DNA of 58,255 bases, the filler included, from Sphacelaria rigidula (lineage: Eukaryota): NCBI GenBank assembly GCA_964200075.2. It is 10 parts of 10 records of this genome, joined end to end, with 100 filler letters (N's around TTAATTAATTAA, not from the genome) between each part and the next. Parts side by side here need not be neighbours in the genome. Positions count along the whole stretch, not along the records: positions 46,686 to 52,420 come from CAXNAA020024856.1; 9 more parts are not named here. One strand, written 5' to 3'. Position numbers and translations under genes: made by a program. Numbering within the stretch: the stretch's first letter is position 1; the number at the start of each line of letters is the position of its first letter. Under the pieces are notes generated by a model, which was not told the DNA's origin, ran no database searches, and worked only from the letters and a program-made list of their open reading frames with translations. This document shows positions 6,008-53,903 of the stretch, in pieces.

Positions 6008-6617
6008 GATGGTGGACTAGACACGGTCGACGCGAACCGTGAGCTCGGGTTCGATGATGATCAGCGTTCCTACGAGTGCGTTGCCTTCATCCTGCGAGAC
6101 ATGGGCGTGAAGGTGGGTTTGGTTGCTGCAAGAGGATAGGTACCACGGAAGTGTTTCCCGTCTGCCGCCTGCAGCACTGGCCATCGCGAACTAACTAAAC
6201 ACTTCCGTACATACTCGCATCTGATCAACTTGTGTATAATTTCCTCAGTAAACAAAAAAATCGAAGGCGTAATTCATGCAGACAGCAAAAAAACTGGGGT
6301 AATTCATTCAACCATCATTGTAGTCCCCCCCCTCTCTCCCCTCTGAAAGGGATGTGTGGTCAATGATCGAATGACCAAGGCAGGCAACAAACGAGTACGC
6401 CCCCCCCCCCCTCCCCCCTTTTCCTCCCCGCGGCGTCCCGTCCTCTTCATAGAGCATACACCTCATGACCAACAATCCTTTCAAGATAAATTGGTTGAAG
6501 GCGACGGGGGTAGAAGTTTCCGGGCGAATTCCGGTGGAGGTGGCTTCCAATAAGCACAACGTGGGATACCTGGAGGCTAAGGCGGATCGCATGAGCCATC
6601 TCATCAATAATCTCTAG
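6008..6617 (+). CDS. ribA: GTP cyclohydrolase II (riboflavin biosynthesis), last two exons 6008-6112 and 6453-6617
   Basis: DGGLDTVDANRELGFDDDQRSYECVAFILRDMGVK|SIHLMTNNPFKINWLKATGVEVSGRIPVEVASNKHNVGYLEAKADRMSHLINNL*. Diagnostic DTVxAN, TNNPxK and YLxxKxxRMxH motifs; phase-0 GT-AG intron. Confidence 0.93.
6340..6418 (+). mobile_element. LINE 3'-end fragment with poly(C) tail, inside the ribA intron
   Basis: GGGATGTGTGGTCAATGATCGAATGACCAAGGCAGGCAACAAACGAGTACG(C)n aligns with the LINE 3' end at 50540-50626. Confidence 0.8.
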
Positions 6618-7878: not shown

Positions 7879-7948
7879 GGGGGGGGAGGGGGAGGGGGAG
7901 GGGGGGTGTACTCATGATCATGCATGCCATAGTCATCAGACCATTGAC
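7879..7948 (-). mobile_element. LINE 3'-end fragment (second subfamily) with poly(C) tail
   Basis: The reverse complement reads GTCAATGGTCTGATGACTATGGCATGCATGATCATGAGTACA(C)n, near-identical to 29211-29251. Confidence 0.8.
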
Positions 7949-29180: not shown

Positions 29181-29251
29181 TGCTCCGTCCCGGCTTTGTA
29201 GGGATGCGAGGTCAATGGTCTGATGACTATGGCAAGCATGATCATGAGTAC
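29181..29251 (+). mobile_element. LINE 3'-end fragment (second subfamily), tail absent
   Basis: TGCTCCGTCCCGGCTTTGTAGGGATGCGAGGTCAATGG..GATCATGAGTAC matches 51067-51146 and 7879-7948. Confidence 0.75.
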
Positions 29252-41026: not shown

Positions 41027-43464
41027 TTATCCATCACGCGGCGGACCAGGCACTTCTAGCTCCAACTTTACGTTCGCATTCTCCGCCTCTTGAGTTTGCA
41101 CACTAGCAAACACGCCGAGGCACCCAGACCTCACTGCTGACAATTCATAGAGCCACCTCGTACCCGCACCGCTTCTACTGCTGCTGGAGCTACCACCACC
41201 ACCTATGCTGCCCGTACCACTTGAATTGGAAGCATGTTCCTCACAATCTCTGACCCAAATACCACAGTGGGCTGGAAAAGGGACGGCCGGCTCCACTCTT
41301 ATTCCTGTCACCACCCTTGCCTCTGACGACACCTCGCCATCAGACCCTGAGGGTGTGTGTGCTGGGAGCAACGGTAGTGTTGCACCATCCCGCCTTGGAC
41401 TGGGGTGCACACTACGGCGAGTGCCGAAAGCGGCCCATGAATCAGAGCCCGAGCGAGCTGCGCATCTGAGTTTCATTCGTCGTACATCAGCGACGCTTTC
41501 TCCACCACCCTCCGTCGGGCTAGGGCAGGATGTGGCCACCCTGGTGTTGAGTTCGACCATGTCGCAAACTGCAGTTGTGTTGTGTGTAGTAGCATGCTGA
41601 AGGCAGAACTGTGCCTCATCCAAGTTGTGTTTCTTGGAGAAACCCCGCTCGGAGCACACCTCCTTGCTTAACTCACCATGTTCCACGCCAAACCTACCCA
41701 CCCTAGCGTGCTCTGAGCAGAAATCCACCTTCCTGCTCCCCGCAACACAATTTGATGGTTGCGTGAGGCAGCCCTCGTCACCGCACCTTGTTTTCACCAC
41801 GCCCACCACTCCCGCTCCGGCGTGCTCAGCGCAGAACTCCATCTTCGTGCTTCTTACCACACGTCGTGATGGCCGCTTGAGGCGGCCCTTATCGCCGAAC
41901 CTCTTGTTTACCACATCTACCATTCCCGCCCTGGCGTGCTCGGAGCGGAACTCCGCCTTTTTGCTCCCTGCTACGCCATACGATGAATGCTTGAGAAAGG
42001 GGTCGGCGCTGCACCTCTTGTCCCTCATGTTACCATTCCCGCCCTAGCGTGCTCGGAGCAGAACTCCGGCTTCGTGCTTCCTGCTACACCATACGACGGG
42101 TGCTTGAGACAGCCATCGTCGCCGCACCTCCTCTTCACCACATTTACCATTCGCGCCCTGGCGTGCTCAGCGCACACCTCCGCCTTCTTGCTTCCTGCTA
42201 CGTCATACGACGGGTGCTTGAGACATCCCTCGTAGCCGCACCTTCTCTTCACCACATTTACCATTCGAGCCCTGGCGTGCTCAGCGCAAACCTCCGCCGT
42301 CTTGCTTCCTGCTACACCATGCGACGGATGCCTCAGACAGCCCTCGTCGCCGCACCTCTTGTTCACCACATTCATCATTCCCGCCCTGGCGTGCTCGGCG
42401 CAGAAGTTCGCCTTCTGGCTTCCGGCTACACCATACGACGGTCGCGTGACGCAGCCCTCGTAGCCGCATTTCTGCTTCACAGTTACCATTCCCGCTCTGG
42501 CGTGCTCTGAGCAGAACTCCACTTTATTGCTTCCGGCTACACCATACGACGATTGCTTGAGACAGCTCTCGTCGCCGCCCCTTTTGTTTACCACATTGAC
42601 CATTCCCGCCCTAGCGTGCTCGGAGCAGAACTCCGGCTTCGTGCTTCCTGCTACACCATACGACGGGTGCTTGAGACAGCCGTCGTCGCCGCACCTCCTC
42701 TTCACCACATTTACCATTCGCGCCCTGGCGTGCTCAGCGCAAACCTCCGCCTTCTTGCTTCCTGCTACGCCATACGACGGGTGCTTGAGACATCCTTCGT
42801 AGCCGCACCTTCTCTTCACCACATTTACCATTCGCGCCCTGGCGTGCTCAGCGCAAACCTCCGCCGTCTTGCTTCCTGCTACACCATGCGACGGATGCCT
42901 CAGACAGCCCTCGTCGCCGCACCTCCTCTTCACCACATTGATCATTCCCGCCCTGGCGTGCTCGTTGCAGAACTCCGCCGTCTTGCTTCCTGCTACACCA
43001 TACGACGGTCGCGTGACGCAGCCCTTGACGCTGCACCTCTTGCTCATCACATTAACCATTCCCGCCCTGGCGTGCCCAGCGCAGAACTCTCTCTTCTTGC
43101 TTCCGGCTATACCCTAGGGCGGATGCTTCAGACAACCCTCGACGCCGCACCTCTTGCTTATCACGTTCACCATTCCGACCCTGGCGTGCTCAGCGCAGAA
43201 CTCTCTCTTCTTGCTTTCTGCTACACCATACGACGGTTGCTTGGGACAGCCCTCGTCGCCGCACCTCTTGTTCATCACATCCACCATTCCCGCCCTGGCG
43301 TGCTCAAAGCAGAACTCCGCCAACTTGCTTCCTGCTACACCATACGACGGATGCTTCAGACAGCCCTCGTCGGCGTTCCTCTTGTTCACCGCATTTACCA
43401 TTCCCGCCCTTTCGTGCCTAGCGCAGAACGCCGCCTTGTAGGGGCATAGACCGTGCGATGACAC
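41027..43464 (-). pseudogene. EsV-1-7 cysteine-rich (Zn-finger-like) repeat protein, ~17 repeats of 38 aa, with an in-frame TAG (43116-43114) and a frameshift at ~42030
   Basis: Tandem KRCxxEGCxKxPSYGVAGSKKAEFCxEHARAGMVNV units (C-x4-C..C-x2-H), the EsV-1-7 motif of phaeoviruses and brown algae. The three ORFs are one interrupted frame. Confidence 0.9.
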
Positions 43465-46400
43465 CTTGGAGCAGCCCTGGTTGATGCGATCTATCGTCGT
43501 GACGTCGGCCGTCAGCTCCCTCTTCGCGTCCTCCTTCGAGAATCAACCTCTGCCGGCAGGACGATCGTCAAAACACCGGACAGCTGTTCGTGAGCTACGG
43601 CTGGCAACGGGATAGATTGGTTTGAGAAACAGTGTCTTTCCATTCGCTGCGCATAGTCAAGAAAATCGCGAGACACCTGCATCTAATGAGACAACACTCC
43701 ATATACACTGACCAATACAAATCTACTGCCCATGGGTATTCAGCGGATGAGCACGTCCTCTACACTACTGCAGTACGCACTGGGAGCAACTATGAAAACG
43801 CTGCAAACGTGAATAAATGCGTTGCAGAAACACTTAGCTGAAATTCCAATGTCAGGTTCCGCTTGGCTGTGCAAGCAAGACCTGGCAGGATGAGGCATGC
43901 CAAATCATAGATATCCGGGCTTGCACAACACCTGCCAACGCTTGAGGAGGTTGCTTTTCACTTTCGGGATAGCTGGCAACGTTGTGGAAAGTTGCCATAT
44001 TCTTACCGATATTTATACATGCTTGGGGGGAAAAGTATGAACTCGTGGGTACCTGATGGGTTTTCAAACTTTTGATCCGCTTTGATTGCGTGTAGGTAAC
44101 AACCGGAAATAAAACAGAGCTGCCCTCTTTCTTCAACTGCGCTTAACGTCACCCTCGGAGGCCAGTTATTCCAAACGTCGCGATGGACGTGATATGTGCA
44201 TAAGCGTGCAAGAAAATGAATTTCTGCTGAATCTCAATTGTGTCTCGCATGCATTTTTCGCATTTCTGCCGTACGCCTGCGCGCATTTTTTCCAAGAAGT
44301 ACAAGCTGATAACGATCAGTTATCGTCCGGAACTACAATATTTTACTGTTTCAGTTGCCACTCAACCTGCAAATCGGTATTCATCAGTTCTGGGACCTGA
44401 TCTACGCAGGAATAATTTGGGTACTGCTCATATCGTGTCGACAAGATGCGCATGGCTATGACATGCTCTTCTTCGCCGGACCGAAACGTGACGTCAGGGG
44501 AACGCCCAGAGGTGAGCGGGACACGAGATCGGGGAGGGCACAAAGACTTCAGATCAGTACATTCCAAACATGGTGGGTGAATACATCATAGCTGTACACG
44601 ATAGATGCGGACAGACATTCCAGATAGGGTAAAAAAAGATGATCGTCATTCTTGCTACAACTGCTCTGGAGGAAACATGGTCCGACCTCGAAACTATTCG
44701 AAAAGCGTTCGAGAGCATTGCTACAAGCAGGCAGAAGTTTGATAGCTTCAAGGAAATAGTTTCAAGCTGAAAGATACCTGAAAAATATAGAGCGAAGCGT
44801 TTTGAAGTGGCAGGTATCTGGTTTTCTTCCGAACAGGTTTTCTAACGTGAGAGGATACCTGCACATATTCGAGGAAGCCCTACTAGAGTGAACAGGTACC
44901 CCACGCGTGTGAGACCTGTACTTCCTGGAGTGAACAGTGTGTCTATATTTGTCGAAAACATACTTCCTGAAGTGAGCATGTGCCACACCTGCTGTTATTC
45001 CTTACGCGTGGTGTACTGTGCTGGCAGTGGGTTCAACGCCAGCACGAGCGTTTGGTGCAGAATGATAGAATGTACGCCTATAAGGCATGACAGGCCAGCA
45101 GTTTAGGTACCGCAGCTTTGATATCCGATTCCATGGTTTATGTTGTGTCTTCCCGATCATTTTGACTGGACGTGAAACCCGTCGTCCCTGGACCACCCCT
45201 TCGCCGTACTCCCGCCGTGGCACGTGCGAAGGTGCGCATGCAATCATTGGGCAGTGCAGCCGCAGACGCTCAGCAGTGGGCTGAATCTCGCATGAAGAGT
45301 CGCAAATCTCGATCCACATTCAGCCAAGACGCCAGCTTTTACCGTTTTATTTATTTTGTGTGTTTGCGACCTAAAGGAGGTGTGTCGTCAAGACCGAAAA
45401 ATATCGAACACCAGCGCACCCAGTACATGGCGCTCGAGGGCGTTGATTCCCAGAGGTGACGGTGATACGGATACGTTTGGAAGCTGGGACGATATACACA
45501 CGTGAGACTACGTAAGCAACTTGCGATCGTTTGCACGGATGCTCGCCAACGATTATCTACGTGAGCTGACGTCGGTGCTGTGTGGGTTCCTTGCGAGCTG
45601 TCAAACGTGTTGTGTCCTCTAGGGTACACTCGGCCTAACAAATCTCGGGTTTGCTAAATGAACGCTTAAGAAGCATTGAACCTAGCAATTTAATTTTGTG
45701 TGCACGTCATCCTCTCACCAGACCATCTTTCAACCCGACCGACACAAGTGTCACATGATCATCCGTTCAGGATACAGCAAAAGTGAACATCTCACGTGAC
45801 CATCTTCCAATAGGGCACAAGTCTTAAATTGCCATTAAAAAACCGCTCCAGGGAGACCGACACGTAAAAGAGACGCAAAACGTTCCACACCCTGAGCAAT
45901 AGGCGATGTCACACGCGGTGCACTTCCCATCGATTGCAAGTACTGAACGTCTTTTGCCCAGTGTGTGATCACTCCCTTTATAAGCGAATCCACGTCTCGC
46001 TGTAATGTGCGTGGCAGTAGCAAATATAGCACACGGAGTCTGCAAGGGAGTGCAAAATGATGCAGTGACAAGTGGAATGTTGTCATCACGAGGGGGGACG
46101 CCAAGCACGAGGAACATCGCGTTTGCCGTGCACGTGCTTCGCGTGCCGACATAGAATATCATGCCTTCAAAGTTCTCAAAACGTACACCCAGTCCTTCTT
46201 GGCGTTCGGCGACGAATTCGTTTAGGTACGACGGCTGCAAAGTATAGCCCCTGCCTTCCGACAGCCAGCAGTACTGCAATATGTTGAGTCCAAGAAACAC
46301 CAACACCCAAACTGTTCACCTCTACCGCTATACCATTCTAGATTGGGTGGCTGCTCTTTCCAGGTGATCTCTCTTGTTCAGAATATTCCAGCAATCATTG

Positions 46401-46759: not shown

Positions 46760-46869
46760 AAGTGCATCTCTTCATGTAATGATTTATATAAAAATTCTGG
46801 CGCCTACTTTTGTCCATGTTCACGAAGTAAAAAAGCAAAAACTCGAAAATGTGGAACCGACAAAACCCC

Positions 46870-47690
46870 AAGAGGAGGGAAGCGGGGGGGGTAGGGTCCT
46901 TAGTCAAGGAATAACTGTGCGGCATCATAGAAGTGATAGAAGACACGAAATTCGACGAGATTATATGGACAAGGGTACCAGGAGAGCGGGGAACAAAGAA
47001 CTTCTTCATATAGGGAACATCTCCGTGCCCCCAGAACCGAAGAGTAGGGTGAACGATATACAGCGGAGGTTTGGAGAGATAGCAGCGGAAATGTATATGT
47101 TAGCATAAAGGGCAAAGAGAAGTAACAATGCTGGAGGGAGATTTCAATACAAGGTTTGGGAAAGCAGGTCAACCGGATGGAATCATTAGGCGATACGGGG
47201 AAGATAAGAACACAAATGGGGTAGAAATGTTAAAGTTCCTCGAGCATAATGAGATGAAGACGCTGAACGATATATTGCAAATGCCAGTGTCGCAATGGAC
47301 TTGCACTAGAAAATGTAACGACGAGAGAGAACGCTCCGTTCTTGACTATAATAGGCTCCAAAGTGGTAGAGCATAGGAATAGTGAGGAAAAGGAAGTACG
47401 TGTACGCGCAGAGGACGTGGGAACTGCAGATCATTGTCTAATATGGACAGAAAGCCAACAGACGGGCGTTAAAAGAAGTAGGCGGGTAGGTAGTCGTACA
47501 AATAGAGAATAGATAAACTAGATATGGACAAGAAAAGCGGCAAGAGTTCCAAGAAGAGATGGCCGAAAATACAGTGGAATTTTCCGAGCTGTTGGAACGC
47601 GTAGGTACAGTTGATACCGAAATGAAAAGAGATCGGGCACGAGCAAAGATTATGGAAGGATGGGAGCAGTTGCAACGTGTGTGAAGATAT
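46870..47690 (+). mobile_element. Degenerate LINE, apurinic-endonuclease domain
   Basis: Frameshifted motifs in order: GGVG.LVKE, GDFNTR, N.NG..ML, SVLDY, DVGTADHCLIW. Confidence 0.85.
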
Positions 47691-47692
47691 GT

Positions 47693-49265
47693 AAGGGCAG
47701 GTCGAGTAGAGTATGTACTTTTGTATACTCGGGTAAAATTCTCGAGTATTTACTCTACTCAAAGTTTGAGTAAATTGGGTACGGCCTCAAATACTCTACT
47801 CAAATTGTGGGTAGGTACTTGAGTATAGAGTGGTGCTACGGTAGGGATGCACGAGTATTTTCTGAGGTTAGAATTGGTAGGGGCCCTGTATCTCATTCAA
47901 AATTCGACTTATGGAAATACGTGAGAGTACGCCAGGATTACTATTCCGATGCGCTCGGGATATACCGAAGGAATTTGCAAACAGGGATGCCTTGACCCAT
48001 ATTCTCGTGCATCTAGAATCGTTAGGAACCCCTGGACCAGACGAAAGTTTGGGCGAAATGTGCATCCCTACAGTACTGCAGCATCGCTCTATAGAGTATC
48101 ACTTGGGTATGACCTCAAATACTCTACCAAAATTTTGGGAAGATTGAGCACGGCCTCAAATACTCTACTCAAATGTTGGGTAGATTGGGTACGACCTCAT
48201 ACACTCTACTCAGATTTTGAGTAGATGGAGCATGGCCTCAAATACTCTACTCAAATTTTGAATACATTGCGTACGACCTCGAATACTCTACTCAAATGTT
48301 GGGCAGGTTGAGTACGATCTCAAGTACTCTACTCAAATTTTGAGTGAGTACTCGCAATAATACTTAAGTAAGTACTCTCAGTAATACATGAGTATAGCGT
48401 ATCACTTGGGTATGACCTCAAATACTCTACTCAAATATTAGGTAGATTGAATATGACCTCAAATACTCTACTCAAATATTAGGTAGATTGAGTACGACCT
48501 CAAATACTCTTCTCAAACATTTGGTAAGCACTCTCAGTAATTCTGAGGTATAGAGTATCACTTGGTTATGGTGAAAAACCGTGACCGTCGGCGACTTCGC
48601 GACGTCACTTCACAGACTATGTTGAATATGTTGGCAAACGATGGTCATCAACGAGATTAGTGACGTTACGCCACGTTCTACAACGAGTATGAGGGGATGG
48701 CGGCCACCAAAAACCAACAAAACGTGCAGGTGAATGAACCTACCTGCCCCAGCTCACCCGCCCAAACCCATGGCAGTACATACTTCATACCTCGCAACCG
48801 CTTCGACATCAGTTTCGGTACAAAGCGCTACTCATCATCATTGGGTGATCGAGTGGACGGGTGGTTGGGTACCTGTAGATGTTGTCAAAATGAGCGACTC
48901 TACGGGCCGCACATCTGACTCCTCCATGGGCGAGCGACCCAGCGATGGAAACAGCGCAAGGGCAGGTCGAGTGGAGTATATACTGTTGAATACTGTACTC
49001 GGGTAAAATGCCCAAGTGTTTACTCCACTCAAATTTTGGATACATTGGGTATGACCTGAAATACTCCACTGATACATTGAGTACTCGTAAGTACTCTCGG
49101 TAATACTTGAGCATAGAGTATCACTTGGGTATGAGCTCAATACTCTACTCAAATTTTGAGCAGATTGAGAATGATCTCAAGTACTCTACTCGAATTTTGG
49201 GGAATAAAAAAGTATAATCTTTCGAAAATACCGAGTACTGAGTATACTCTATTCGATCTGCTCTT
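47693..49265. mobile_element. Non-autonomous TIR element(s) with 41-bp palindromic tandem repeats; a second left end at ~48959
   Basis: Left end AAGGGCAGGTCGAGTAGAGTAT versus right end ATACTCTATTCGATCTGCTCTT. Units resembling GACCTCAAATACTCTACTCAAATTTTGAGTAGATTGAGTAC start at 48111, 48152, 48193, 48234, 48275 and 48316. Confidence 0.8.
47828..48089. mobile_element. Nested MITE with GAG..CTC termini and a 4-bp TATA target-site duplication (Sola-like)
   Basis: TATA at 47824-47827 and 48090-48093; TIR core GTAGGGATGCAC. Empty-site-like sequences (ATAGAGTATCACTTGG) occur at ~48550 and ~49114. Confidence 0.8.
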
Positions 49266-49271
49266 GAAGCT

Positions 49272-50626
49272 GTGGTATCAGGATTGATGTTCGCGGATGA
49301 TCATGTGGGGATATCAAGAACACCAGGAGGACTGCGGAAACAGATCGACAAGGTGCTAGAATACACTAGGAAATAGAGAGTGACAGCGAACGTCAACAAA
49401 TGCGCGGTGCTTGTATGTAACGACGACGGTAAGAATCCGGTAGAGTTCGAATGGAAGTGGAGAATTGCCGATCGTAGACCAGTATACATACCCTGGCGTA
49501 GAGATATCAAAAAGTTATTCTTAGGACGCACACATAGATAAAGTAGTAAAAAAAATCAAGGCACAAACAGGCAGGGTAGACGGGATCCTCAGAGACTCGG
49601 ACCTTGACATTAGGATTAAGGTATGCAACCTGATGAACGTGATTGTACCAAAGCTGGAATATGCAGGAGAAGTATGGGAGGGGAACGTGAGGTTGGTGAA
49701 AATTTTGCAAACAGTACAGATGGCAGCAGCTAAGAGAATACTTGGTTGCTCGAATACAACGGGCAATACAGTATTGAGAGCAGAATTGAAAATGTACCCA
49801 ATAAAAACAAGCAGAGCCATGAAAAAATGATATGACAACATAGCGTAAAGAACATGCAGAGAAGGCGGTTGTGTAGCACAGTTGATGGGGCTGTATGAAA
49901 GAACGTTACGAAAGGGAAGGCTGGAATAAGATGGGATAAAGAAGTAGTGGAGAAAGTTTGGAAGGAGATAGGAGGAAATCAAGACGAAATACTGTTATTA
50001 GGCGAAGATACGGGGTACAGGACAAATTTAAGAGACATGATAGAAATAAGGGGAAAAGGAGCGCTCAGACGCGAAGTAAACGAGGAAGAACCCTGGAGAT
50101 ATACGGGGAGGTTGAGAGAGGGGATAGGGATGAAAACGTATCAGCATGCCCCAATGGACGCGGCGAAAATTTTGAAACTGCGATTTCGGGTGAGAGGCTT
50201 GGACCTGTCAGAAAGAAAAAAGAGATACACCAGTAGTCGAGAGGAGAACGAAGTAAATGCACAGAATAGCCTCTGTGGCAAGGCAGTAGAAAGCGGAACT
50301 AGTATAGTGGCAGAGTGTTGACTATTTAAGGAGGAAGGGGTAGAGGTGGAAATGCAGGACTTGAACGAAGGTGGCGCGAAATCATTTGATGCACTAAACA
50401 GTAGGAAGTAAACGATGGCTGTACTAGGAGATAGATGGTGGCCACAGACTGCGAAACTATTTTAACGGTTTTTGTGCAATGTATGGAAGAAACGTAATGA
50501 GCATCGAACTTTCGGAGGCGGCTCTATGAGGAGTAGGAACGATGCTCCGTCTCTAAAGGTCTGCGTGGATAATAGTCAACGACTAAGGCAAGCAACGAAT
50601 GAGTACACCCCCGCCACCCCCCCCCC
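49272..50626 (+). mobile_element. Degenerate LINE: reverse transcriptase C-terminal half, Cys-rich tail and poly(C) 3' end
   Basis: GLMFADDHVGIS, VTANVNKCAV, IVPKLEYAGEVW, AAKRILGC, LRAELKMYP and LKLRFR..CGKAVES...VAEC, with many stops and frameshifts. Ends TGA-GTACA-(C)n. Confidence 0.9.
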
Positions 50627-51062
50627 GCCTTTTCCGTCTAAAAGCTTGGCGTCGATTATCAACGACGCCGTAAAACACGCCATTCACTGCGAAAGCTAGG
50701 CTACCAATTTACCGTTTTTTTATCGCTTGCTTTATTTTTGCGGTAACCATGATGGTGGTCGAGTCAGATCATATTGTGTGGGGTGAGAGAACCTCAACTC
50801 CGCGCAAAAGGGATGATCATACTACGTGGTGCTTAAATGGTGAGGCACCTATGAGGCAGCGTAACCCGTGGCTGTCTCTGAAAGTGGTGATACCAGTGAA
50901 TGAAGCAATTCATTGAAGGCTGCCATCCGTATGCAAGGTAATCAGTGCGCTTGGAGCTGAACAATCTTAGCAGGGTGCAATTTACCCTTCATGCGACTCG
51001 CCGAGCCCATCACGGCGATTCGCGCTCGGTGTGTGATTGCAAGCTTGAACCGGCAAAACCAT

Positions 51063-51146
51063 GGCGTGCTCTGTCCCGGCTCTGTAGGGATGCGAGGTCA
51101 AATGGTCTTGTCACAACGACATGCAACATCATGAGTACACCCCCCC
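51063..51146 (+). mobile_element. LINE 3'-end fragment (second subfamily) with C tail
   Basis: TGCTCTGTCCCGGCTCTGTAGGGATGCGAGGTCAAATGG..ATCATGAGTACACCCCCCC. Confidence 0.75.
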
Positions 51147-52309: not shown

Positions 52310-52420
52310 GACGGCGAAACAGGACGGGGATAAGCTATGTAAAAGTTTTTGTGTAATGTATGGAAGAAACGTAATGAGTGCCGGAATGTTGAAGGTGGCT
52401 CTATTAGGAGTAGGAACGGT
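52310..52420 (+). mobile_element. 5'-truncated LINE copy, cut by the contig end
   Basis: AATGTATGGAAGAAACGTAATGAG..GGCTCTAT.AGGAGTAGGAACG matches 50478-50541. Confidence 0.8.
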
Positions 52421-53265: not shown

Positions 53266-53903
53266 GCTAGATGCCAGCGTCTGCAGGGAGAAGTGGACAT
53301 GCTCACGGCGGAGCGCGACAAGCTGATGGACATTGGGAACGGTCTCAGGGCAGAGCTCAACCGCGTCATGTCGGCGAGCTACCAGGCATGAAAAACACAC
53401 AGCGATGCCGACGACTGACGCCGCATTGATGCACCGACACTCCAGTACTTGCAGACTTGCGGTAGTACCGCTCATGACTATCCATATCTGTGTTCGTTTT
53501 TGTTGTTGCTGTTGTCCTCGTCGTCCTCGTCGTCCTCGTCGTCATTGTTTTTTACTCTGTACGCTGCATTTTTGCTCGTTTTCAGGTTATAGTGTACGTT
53601 ACCATGTTGAGAATTGAAAAAAATCTCCCTCTACTCCCCTAGTTGCATTGCTTTTTTTTAGTTTGGATGGAAGCTCACCCCAAGCACTTGTAAATATATA
53701 ATACTATACACCATGCTGTTGAACAAGAACACATTCTGTTCCGGAAGGTATGCTACCATCCTTCCCCCCCCCCGTCCTCTGATCATGAGTACACCCGTCC
53801 TCTGGTTATGTTATTGCACCCCAATCGCTACTTTGTTATTGCGCTGTGACTAGTACACCTGAAACCAATTGGGGAGGAAGGTTGAGGGTGCGAATCCCGG
53901 GAG

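Follow-up and report, generated by a model that had tools for sequence, protein, structure and literature searches.

L1 retrotransposons carry an ORF1 and a 3′ UTR and are polyadenylated, and their RNA is recognised by its poly(A). In human L1 TPRT, the poly(A) tail anneals to a T-tract primer, a pairing of homopolymers for which as few as 4 matched nucleotides suffice, and the TSD begins in the run (PMC3649969). Stringent-type LINEs have other tails, such as (TAA)n in I and (TGTAA)n in UnaL2, for whose repeats template slippage has been proposed (PMC3747384), and green-algal RTEX elements end in the microsatellites (CA)n, (CAA)n, or (CCAT)n (Table 3 of the same paper).

Closest to the locus described here are the RTE-X families of Ectocarpus. 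A supplementary table published in 2025 (PMC12477816, MOESM3) describes the 3′ ends of RTEX-1, -2, -N1, and -N2 as (C)n and their TSDs as "C-rich," with the entries "single EN-RT ORF; (C)n 3′" for RTEX-1_Ec32 of Ectocarpus sp. 7 and "(C)n termini/TSD" for RTEX-2_Ec32, and it records RTEX-N1 as 604-607 bp long with a 3′ 60 bp that is 83% alike to the LINE. The same source describes its Ectocarpus assembly as near-gapless and RTEX-N1_Ec32, at about 600 bp and 2.48 Mb, as the most abundant Ectocarpus repeat; judged by size, this is possibly the earlier "Sower," which occupies about 2.5 Mb in Ectocarpus (PMC3145265). The RTE-X assignment rests on published best blastp hits (PMC12477816), and the Repbase clade list was taken from PMC5753468.

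A LINE terminus followed by a C run, of which an initial annotation of the DNA studied here knew no description, is thus already catalogued for Ectocarpus RTE-X families. The accessible main text of PMC12477816 contains neither "C-rich" nor "homopolymer" and offers no mechanism or TSD statistics. We found no mechanistic study of C-ended LINEs in the literature searched, a weak absence because most subscription papers and Repbase Reports lie outside that scope. To the catalogue we add a quantification of tail and target, a truncation peak at 59-69 nt, a 3′ hairpin that covaries and falls within the ORF, and relatives whose tails are (TC)n or (ATTT)n.

Two Types of C-Ended Element in One Window

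The window is a 58,255-nt stretch of DNA from Sphacelaria rigidula (GCA_964200075.2), made up of contigs of ~5.8 kb joined via N-linkers; the assembly behind it comprises 244 Mb in 27,214 contigs. All nine sites at which the initial annotation had placed a terminus against a C run are present (Table 1). They do fall into two types, as it had claimed, but instead of two subfamilies we find an autonomous LINE alongside a non-coding element of ~0.6 kb, hereafter the partner, and the label "stop codon" given to the terminus fits the LINE only, because the partner is non-coding.

Table 1. Elements, element ends, and C tracts located in the window
Feature	Position	Strand	Remarks
59-nt 5′-truncated LINE end and C tract	6345..6418	+	C8 run directly upstream, 6325-6332
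41-nt partner end, C tract interrupted	7879..7948	-	
Partner-type end at contig edge, C13	11550..11573	-	
LINE end and C tract at contig edge	29041..29080	-	
Partner end without C run (counter-example)	29181..29251	+	
LINE-like end, degenerate, C16	40851..40909	+	
Decayed endonuclease-region LINE fragment (P0003 aa 196-462)	46845..47672	+	tblastn; blastn 78% to L197
Decayed ORF remnant: RT end, thumb, C-terminal CCHC-like domain	49273..50599	+	P0003 aa 880-1328
~65-nt 3′ module in ORF end: two predicted hairpins, stop TGA, GTAC; decayed here	50543..50606	+	
A, then interrupted C tract (C5-G-C2-A-C10)	50607..50626	+	Tract proper 50608-50626
Non-autonomous partner (RTEX-N1-like), ~66 nt short at 5′ end	50646..51146	+	blastn
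LINE 3′ fragment; contig end cuts ~69 nt before terminus	52310..52420	+	
Minimal insertion: ~12 nt of partner terminus	53764..53803	+	Read directly from sequence
Partner-type end at window end, C13	58226..58255	-	

The ORF remnant of the focal LINE contains frameshifts and stops and is 78% identical at the nucleotide level to the intact L197; the match to P0003, the reference protein described below, reaches 50603, and the terminus reads TGA (50600-50602) followed by GTAC (50603-50606). The endonuclease fragment is collinear with the RT part, with other repeats in between, and represents either the same disrupted LINE copy or a neighboring one. Directly behind the C tract of the focal LINE lies the long partner copy, which is 84% identical over 498 nt to the partner majority sequence and ends in GAGTAC-A-C7. 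The minimal insertion is flanked by duplicated CCC-GTCCTCT, its target run being C10 and its 3′ run C3. Separating the endonuclease fragment of the focal LINE from its RT fragment, at 47673-49260, is a block with a GAGTAC-rich tandem repeat of 41 bp (82/123 bp); part of the flank of this block is found again where the contig begins (about 46690 and 48015).

The Autonomous LINE Encodes an APE Endonuclease and an RT in One ORF

P0003 is a 1,328-aa single ORF with Exo_endo_phos (PF03372, aa 142-383; APE endonuclease) and RVT_1 (PF00078, aa 710-959; RT) domains, and its C-terminus is the same as that of the focal LINE. Its best PDB matches are L1 ORF2p, then R2, its cluster contains Ectocarpus members, and the closest named proteins are from Ectocarpus. 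Both the endonuclease and the RT region are matched within the window, in support of the LINE identity proposed from the sequence alone, and the hallmarks of non-LTR elements are present: a fixed 3′ end, variable 5′ truncation, TSDs of variable length, and no LTR. The element is an APE-type non-LTR retrotransposon with endonuclease and RT in one ORF.

Three independent metagenome contigs that cover the ORF end (L195, L197, and L198; 54-73% aa identity) finish in stop-GTACG-(C)7-10, so the stop of the LINE is real and its 3′ UTR is 5 nt long. The near-absence of a 3′ UTR is therefore upheld, and the proposed terminal stop codon is a true stop in intact relatives, although the TGA of the focal copy is out of frame by decay.

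RTEX-1/-2_Ec32 share with this LINE the single EN-RT ORF, the (C)n 3′ end, the C-rich TSD, and a copy number in the thousands, and their length of 5.5-5.9 kb compares with 5,649 bp for the contig of P0003 and 5,110 bp for L197. Unlike that entry, the copies in this genome are decayed, the longest having 43-70% aa identity to P0003 and nearly all containing stops. The combination of a (C)n 3′ end with a C-rich TSD that marks the RTEX-1/-2_Ec32 lineage is found here, and from such matching features, compared by description, together with the Ectocarpus proteins in its cluster and clade, the LINE probably belongs to that lineage. A quick RT tree of 62 rows, built without a labelled RTEX reference, unites the 12 brown-algal-type rows in a single clade (SH-aLRT 100), nested within a wider group (97) to which the distant relatives with other tails belong as well. 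The Ectocarpus-annotated protein P0006 (1,927 aa) combines the RT of this LINE (92% to P0003 across two-thirds of the query) with other retroelement domains including PF08719, and is probably a gene model that spans nested elements.

A Non-coding Partner Shares the LINE 3′ End

The partner measures about 560-585 nt by alignment, its longest stop-free frame is 83 codons, and it matches the LINE end at 81-85% over its final 50-52 nt, close to the ~600 bp and ~83% over the 3′ 60 bp that characterize RTEX-N1. RTEX-N1_Ec32 is likewise non-coding, ~0.6 kb long, LINE-like over its 3′ 50-60 nt, provided with a C-rich TSD, and often adjoins other copies; the partner is somewhat shorter by alignment and differs in that a repeat of its own 3′ module makes up its first 49 nt, a feature absent from the rows for RTEX-N1_Ec32 in the supplementary table (PMC12477816, MOESM3). 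An Rfam scan of 6 loci, 2 of them with long partner copies, found no ribozyme or tRNA-like head and gave a single chance match (E 0.44).

The repeat in the partner head matches positions 1-49 to positions 470-515, where the 3′ module starts, at 82% over 49 nt (e.g., L096, L075, and L153), and it may be a promoter or a cleavage site, or a sign of dimeric origin. Among 50 partner copies, 8 are truncated at 90-99 nt, which is the start of the 3′ module.

The Shared 3′ Module Has Predicted Hairpins and Precedes Different Tails in Relatives

Nearly half of the LINE copies (41/90) are truncated 59-69 nt from the end, a peak that coincides with the base of a predicted GAAA-loop hairpin, after which comes a second predicted hairpin. 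For the five pairs of hairpin 2, 90.6% of positions are paired across 17 ends including distant relatives, against 81.1% in shuffled data, with 10 double-sided changes against 2.8 (0/500 shuffles); this covariation is support rather than proof, because the hairpin was chosen by eye from the same related sequences as were scored. The loop of hairpin 2 is freely variable in the partner. Hairpin 1 is conserved, with 78-82 of 83 paired, as scored within families only, the cross-family alignment being out of register.

Distant relatives (28-40% aa identity) carry the same CAATGG-hairpin motif at the ORF end and almost no 3′ UTR, followed by other tails: (TC)n in L202, L203, L204, L206, L209, and L210, with (ATTT)n in L200; the ATT-rich end of L199 is unclear. 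Stringent-type LINEs share with this LINE a 3′ stem-loop common to a SINE-like partner and a tail of non-A repeats; this LINE departs from them in its single-base repeat unit (C) and in stem-loops that are part of the coding sequence. Unlike L1, this LINE has a stringent-type 3′ hairpin module and lacks poly(A).

C Tracts Follow the Terminus Genome-Wide

Exact matches to the 20-nt LINE terminus number 4,424 in the genome, against 0 for a reversed-pattern control, and 3,280 of these (74%; 1,642 forward and 1,638 reverse) are followed by N-CCCC, about a quarter lacking it; the partner terminus has 2,909 exact copies. Positions 2-5 past both termini are 84-94% C, and the C content decays toward background by ~20-30 nt (30 loci per terminus in list order, giving 32 termini each, two of them counted twice). 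A run of at least 8 A within 40 nt was seen at 2/102 LINE-type and 0/57 partner-type termini, as opposed to the poly(A) tail of relaxed, L1-type LINEs, and the flanks past the C run are unique, with 6/12,090 pairs similar. The downstream C enrichment reported in the initial annotation therefore extends to the whole genome, the lack of poly(A) is upheld at the termini counted, with no conserved element sequence beyond the C run, and we confirm that the C-ended LINE feature is real, striking, and abundant.

The C run is present in most copies but is not obligatory: besides the counter-example in Table 1, it is missing from 3/12 termini among 13 long copies retrieved by protein search, and the RT-linked end of L112 lacks it. 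Interrupted tracts make up 40/158.

Insertions Prefer C Runs and Duplicate Them

We counted junctions at 124 termini with usable flanks out of 159 distinct termini, the other 35 having a short or N flank or extending to where the 940-nt reference stops. In the 30 nt that precede the 5′ junction, 90/124 copies have a C5 run and 1/124 a G5 run, compared with 5/119 and 6/120 background windows, so that the preference is strand-specific; the fraction of C upstream is highest, 0.56-0.60, at -6 to -15 from the junction, and 34/124 copies lack an upstream C5. Nesting in the tail of an earlier copy accounts for 19/124 copies (control, 0/117), and the upstream C run is still found in 72/105 once nested copies are removed. 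TSD-like duplications, called as exact repeats of 7 nt or more that include 4 or more non-C bases, flank 42/124 copies, against a mean of 3.1 and a maximum of 8 in 200 shuffles, leaving 82/124 copies without a stringent TSD. Their unique part spans 4-15 nt and mostly begins where the C tract stops, most of the duplications being led by Cs; the minimal insertion at 53764..53803 displays this arrangement. Targeting of C runs, or priming on G/C tracts, which the initial annotation had put forward, is thereby supported.

After 6/42 doubtful calls had been dropped, tract lengths could be compared at 36 insertions: the two tracts differ by no more than 3 nt in 17, the 3′ tract exceeds the target tract by 4 nt or more in 9, and it falls short by 4 nt or more in 10. 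Overall the two lengths are similar (Wilcoxon p 0.89) and uncorrelated (rho 0.04, p 0.83, n=36), comparisons that are affected by any shift in homopolymer length after insertion or during assembly. Four targets consisting of CCC only (L057, L132, L149, and L151) carry 3′ tracts of 7-14 nt, that is, with additional Cs on the element side, and L036 has a C17 target and only CC at its 3′ end. Because the tract lengths are uncorrelated, the target gives the C run without setting the length of the 3′ tract, and the C run is partly target, partly element.

At L187 (10 kb, with two TSD-resolved copies), no joint skipping either insertion was found among those listed for the contigs of 4 runs, the closest DNA-like run having 0-1 differences per matched piece; we therefore infer the target runs from the 5′ copies of the TSDs. 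On the opposite strand, contigs from four sequencing runs have G-rich loose ends, some where the terminus lies and others close to the -65 junction, which in two runs involve hundreds of contigs with an agreement of about 0.4-0.5; the X5 and X6 contigs look spliced, and contigs cannot show RNA ends. Two short LINE copies at L187:3419-6056 lie inside an apparent intron of RNA-like contigs, on the aligned strand of those contigs.

A Proposed Mirror Image of L1 Priming

We consider it likely that this brown-algal lineage of (C)n-ended LINEs (RTEX-1/RTEX-2_Ec32, with an RTEX-N1-like partner) inserts by a TPRT that is the mirror image of that of L1, G:C replacing T:A. The EN-RT protein would bind the ~65-nt two-hairpin module at the RNA 3′ end, where it overlaps the last codons, and the APE endonuclease would nick the G strand inside a genomic C/G run, after which the terminal Gs of the primer would pair, in variable register, with the C tract behind GAGUAC(G/A). 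A second nick 4-15 nt past the run would yield a TSD that starts in Cs, as most of those found here do. Given priming in C runs and C-led TSDs, the new 3′ tract would consist of RNA-derived Cs and duplicated target Cs. The Cs of the RNA itself probably come from read-through of the genomic tract of the donor copy together with RT slippage, a self-sustaining loop that would need no poly(C) polymerase and would also explain the nesting in older tails. The "unusual 3′ processing" of the initial annotation, in the sense of enzymatic C-tailing, is not required by the data, nor do they show it.

It is unlikely that the RNA instead ends in only a few templated Cs that the RT copies reiteratively, by telomerase-like slippage, before it copies the body, all extra Cs then arising in TPRT. 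Such copying would agree with the variable and interrupted tracts, with the microsatellite tails of relatives, and with the slippage proposed for UnaL2 repeats (PMC3747384); it is inseparable from mirror-image priming by genomic data, and later mutation accounts equally well for the single-base interruptions.

We regard as very unlikely a purely targeted insertion, in which GAGTAC(G/A) is the end of a tailless element and all downstream Cs are duplicated target. The strong upstream C enrichment, the overall likeness of 3′ and target tract lengths, and those 3′ ends with only 0-4 Cs speak for it, yet it fails because sites with CCC only carry longer 3′ tracts, the excess over the target being 4-17 nt in the 9/36 copies, and the lack of correlation between the tracts also argues against it. 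Little credence can likewise be given to an untemplated poly(C) tail that a host nucleotidyltransferase or an element protein would add to the RNA and that would pair with G runs. Under such tailing, the 3′ tract would have a length distribution of its own, independent of the target, as it does (median about 9 nt), and donor copies would leave no specific tail haplotypes, of which we found none recurrent beyond simple patterns (the commonest interrupted 14-mer occurs 4 times). However, in the relatives the place of the C tract behind the shared 3′ hairpin motif is taken by (TC)n or (ATTT)n, dinucleotide and tetranucleotide repeats that a homopolymerase cannot make, the green-algal RTEX tails are microsatellites (PMC3747384, Table 3), and the C tracts are often interrupted. 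A post-transcriptional untemplated poly(C) tail coupled to a co-evolved G-run-specific APE endonuclease is, in our estimate, highly improbable; if true, it would be the full G:C counterpart of the poly(A)/T-tract system of L1 and would imply a C-tailing activity on long eukaryotic RNA.

The probability of a sequencing or assembly artefact (two-colour poly-G), raised in the initial annotation and suggested by the fragmented assembly, the many copies at contig ends, and a few very long, perhaps inflated runs near contig ends (L012 and L049), is negligible, since unique DNA follows the runs, which are short and interrupted, C runs also lie 5′ of the element as part of the TSD, the same end occurs in three other assemblies, and the feature is recorded in the near-gapless Ectocarpus assembly (PMC12477816).

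Implications for Brown-Algal Genomes and LINE Biology

Because C-ended elements are among the most abundant repeats in genomes of the Ectocarpus type, a mechanism for them would help explain the C/G runs of such genomes, as well as their nested repeat clusters and many assembly breaks. Mirror-image priming would also offer a natural test of whether tail-target pairing or poly(A) as such sets the insertion preference of LINEs, in one lineage that keeps its 3′ hairpin motif while the tail switches among (C)n, (TC)n, and (ATTT)n. A G-run-preferring APE nuclease and a 65-nt recognition module inside the ORF, both of which we infer, would be useful for retrotransposon biochemistry.

Other Repeats and Homopolymer Runs in the Window

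On the minus strand, 41027-43542 contains ORFs of 114-bp (38-aa) Cys/His repeats in 13.6 copies, which we take to resemble the EsV-1-7 repeats of brown algae. The whole window has 15 C/G runs of at least 10 nt (8 C and 7 G) versus 10 A/T runs, and several of these C/G runs stand without a recognisable element terminus alongside.
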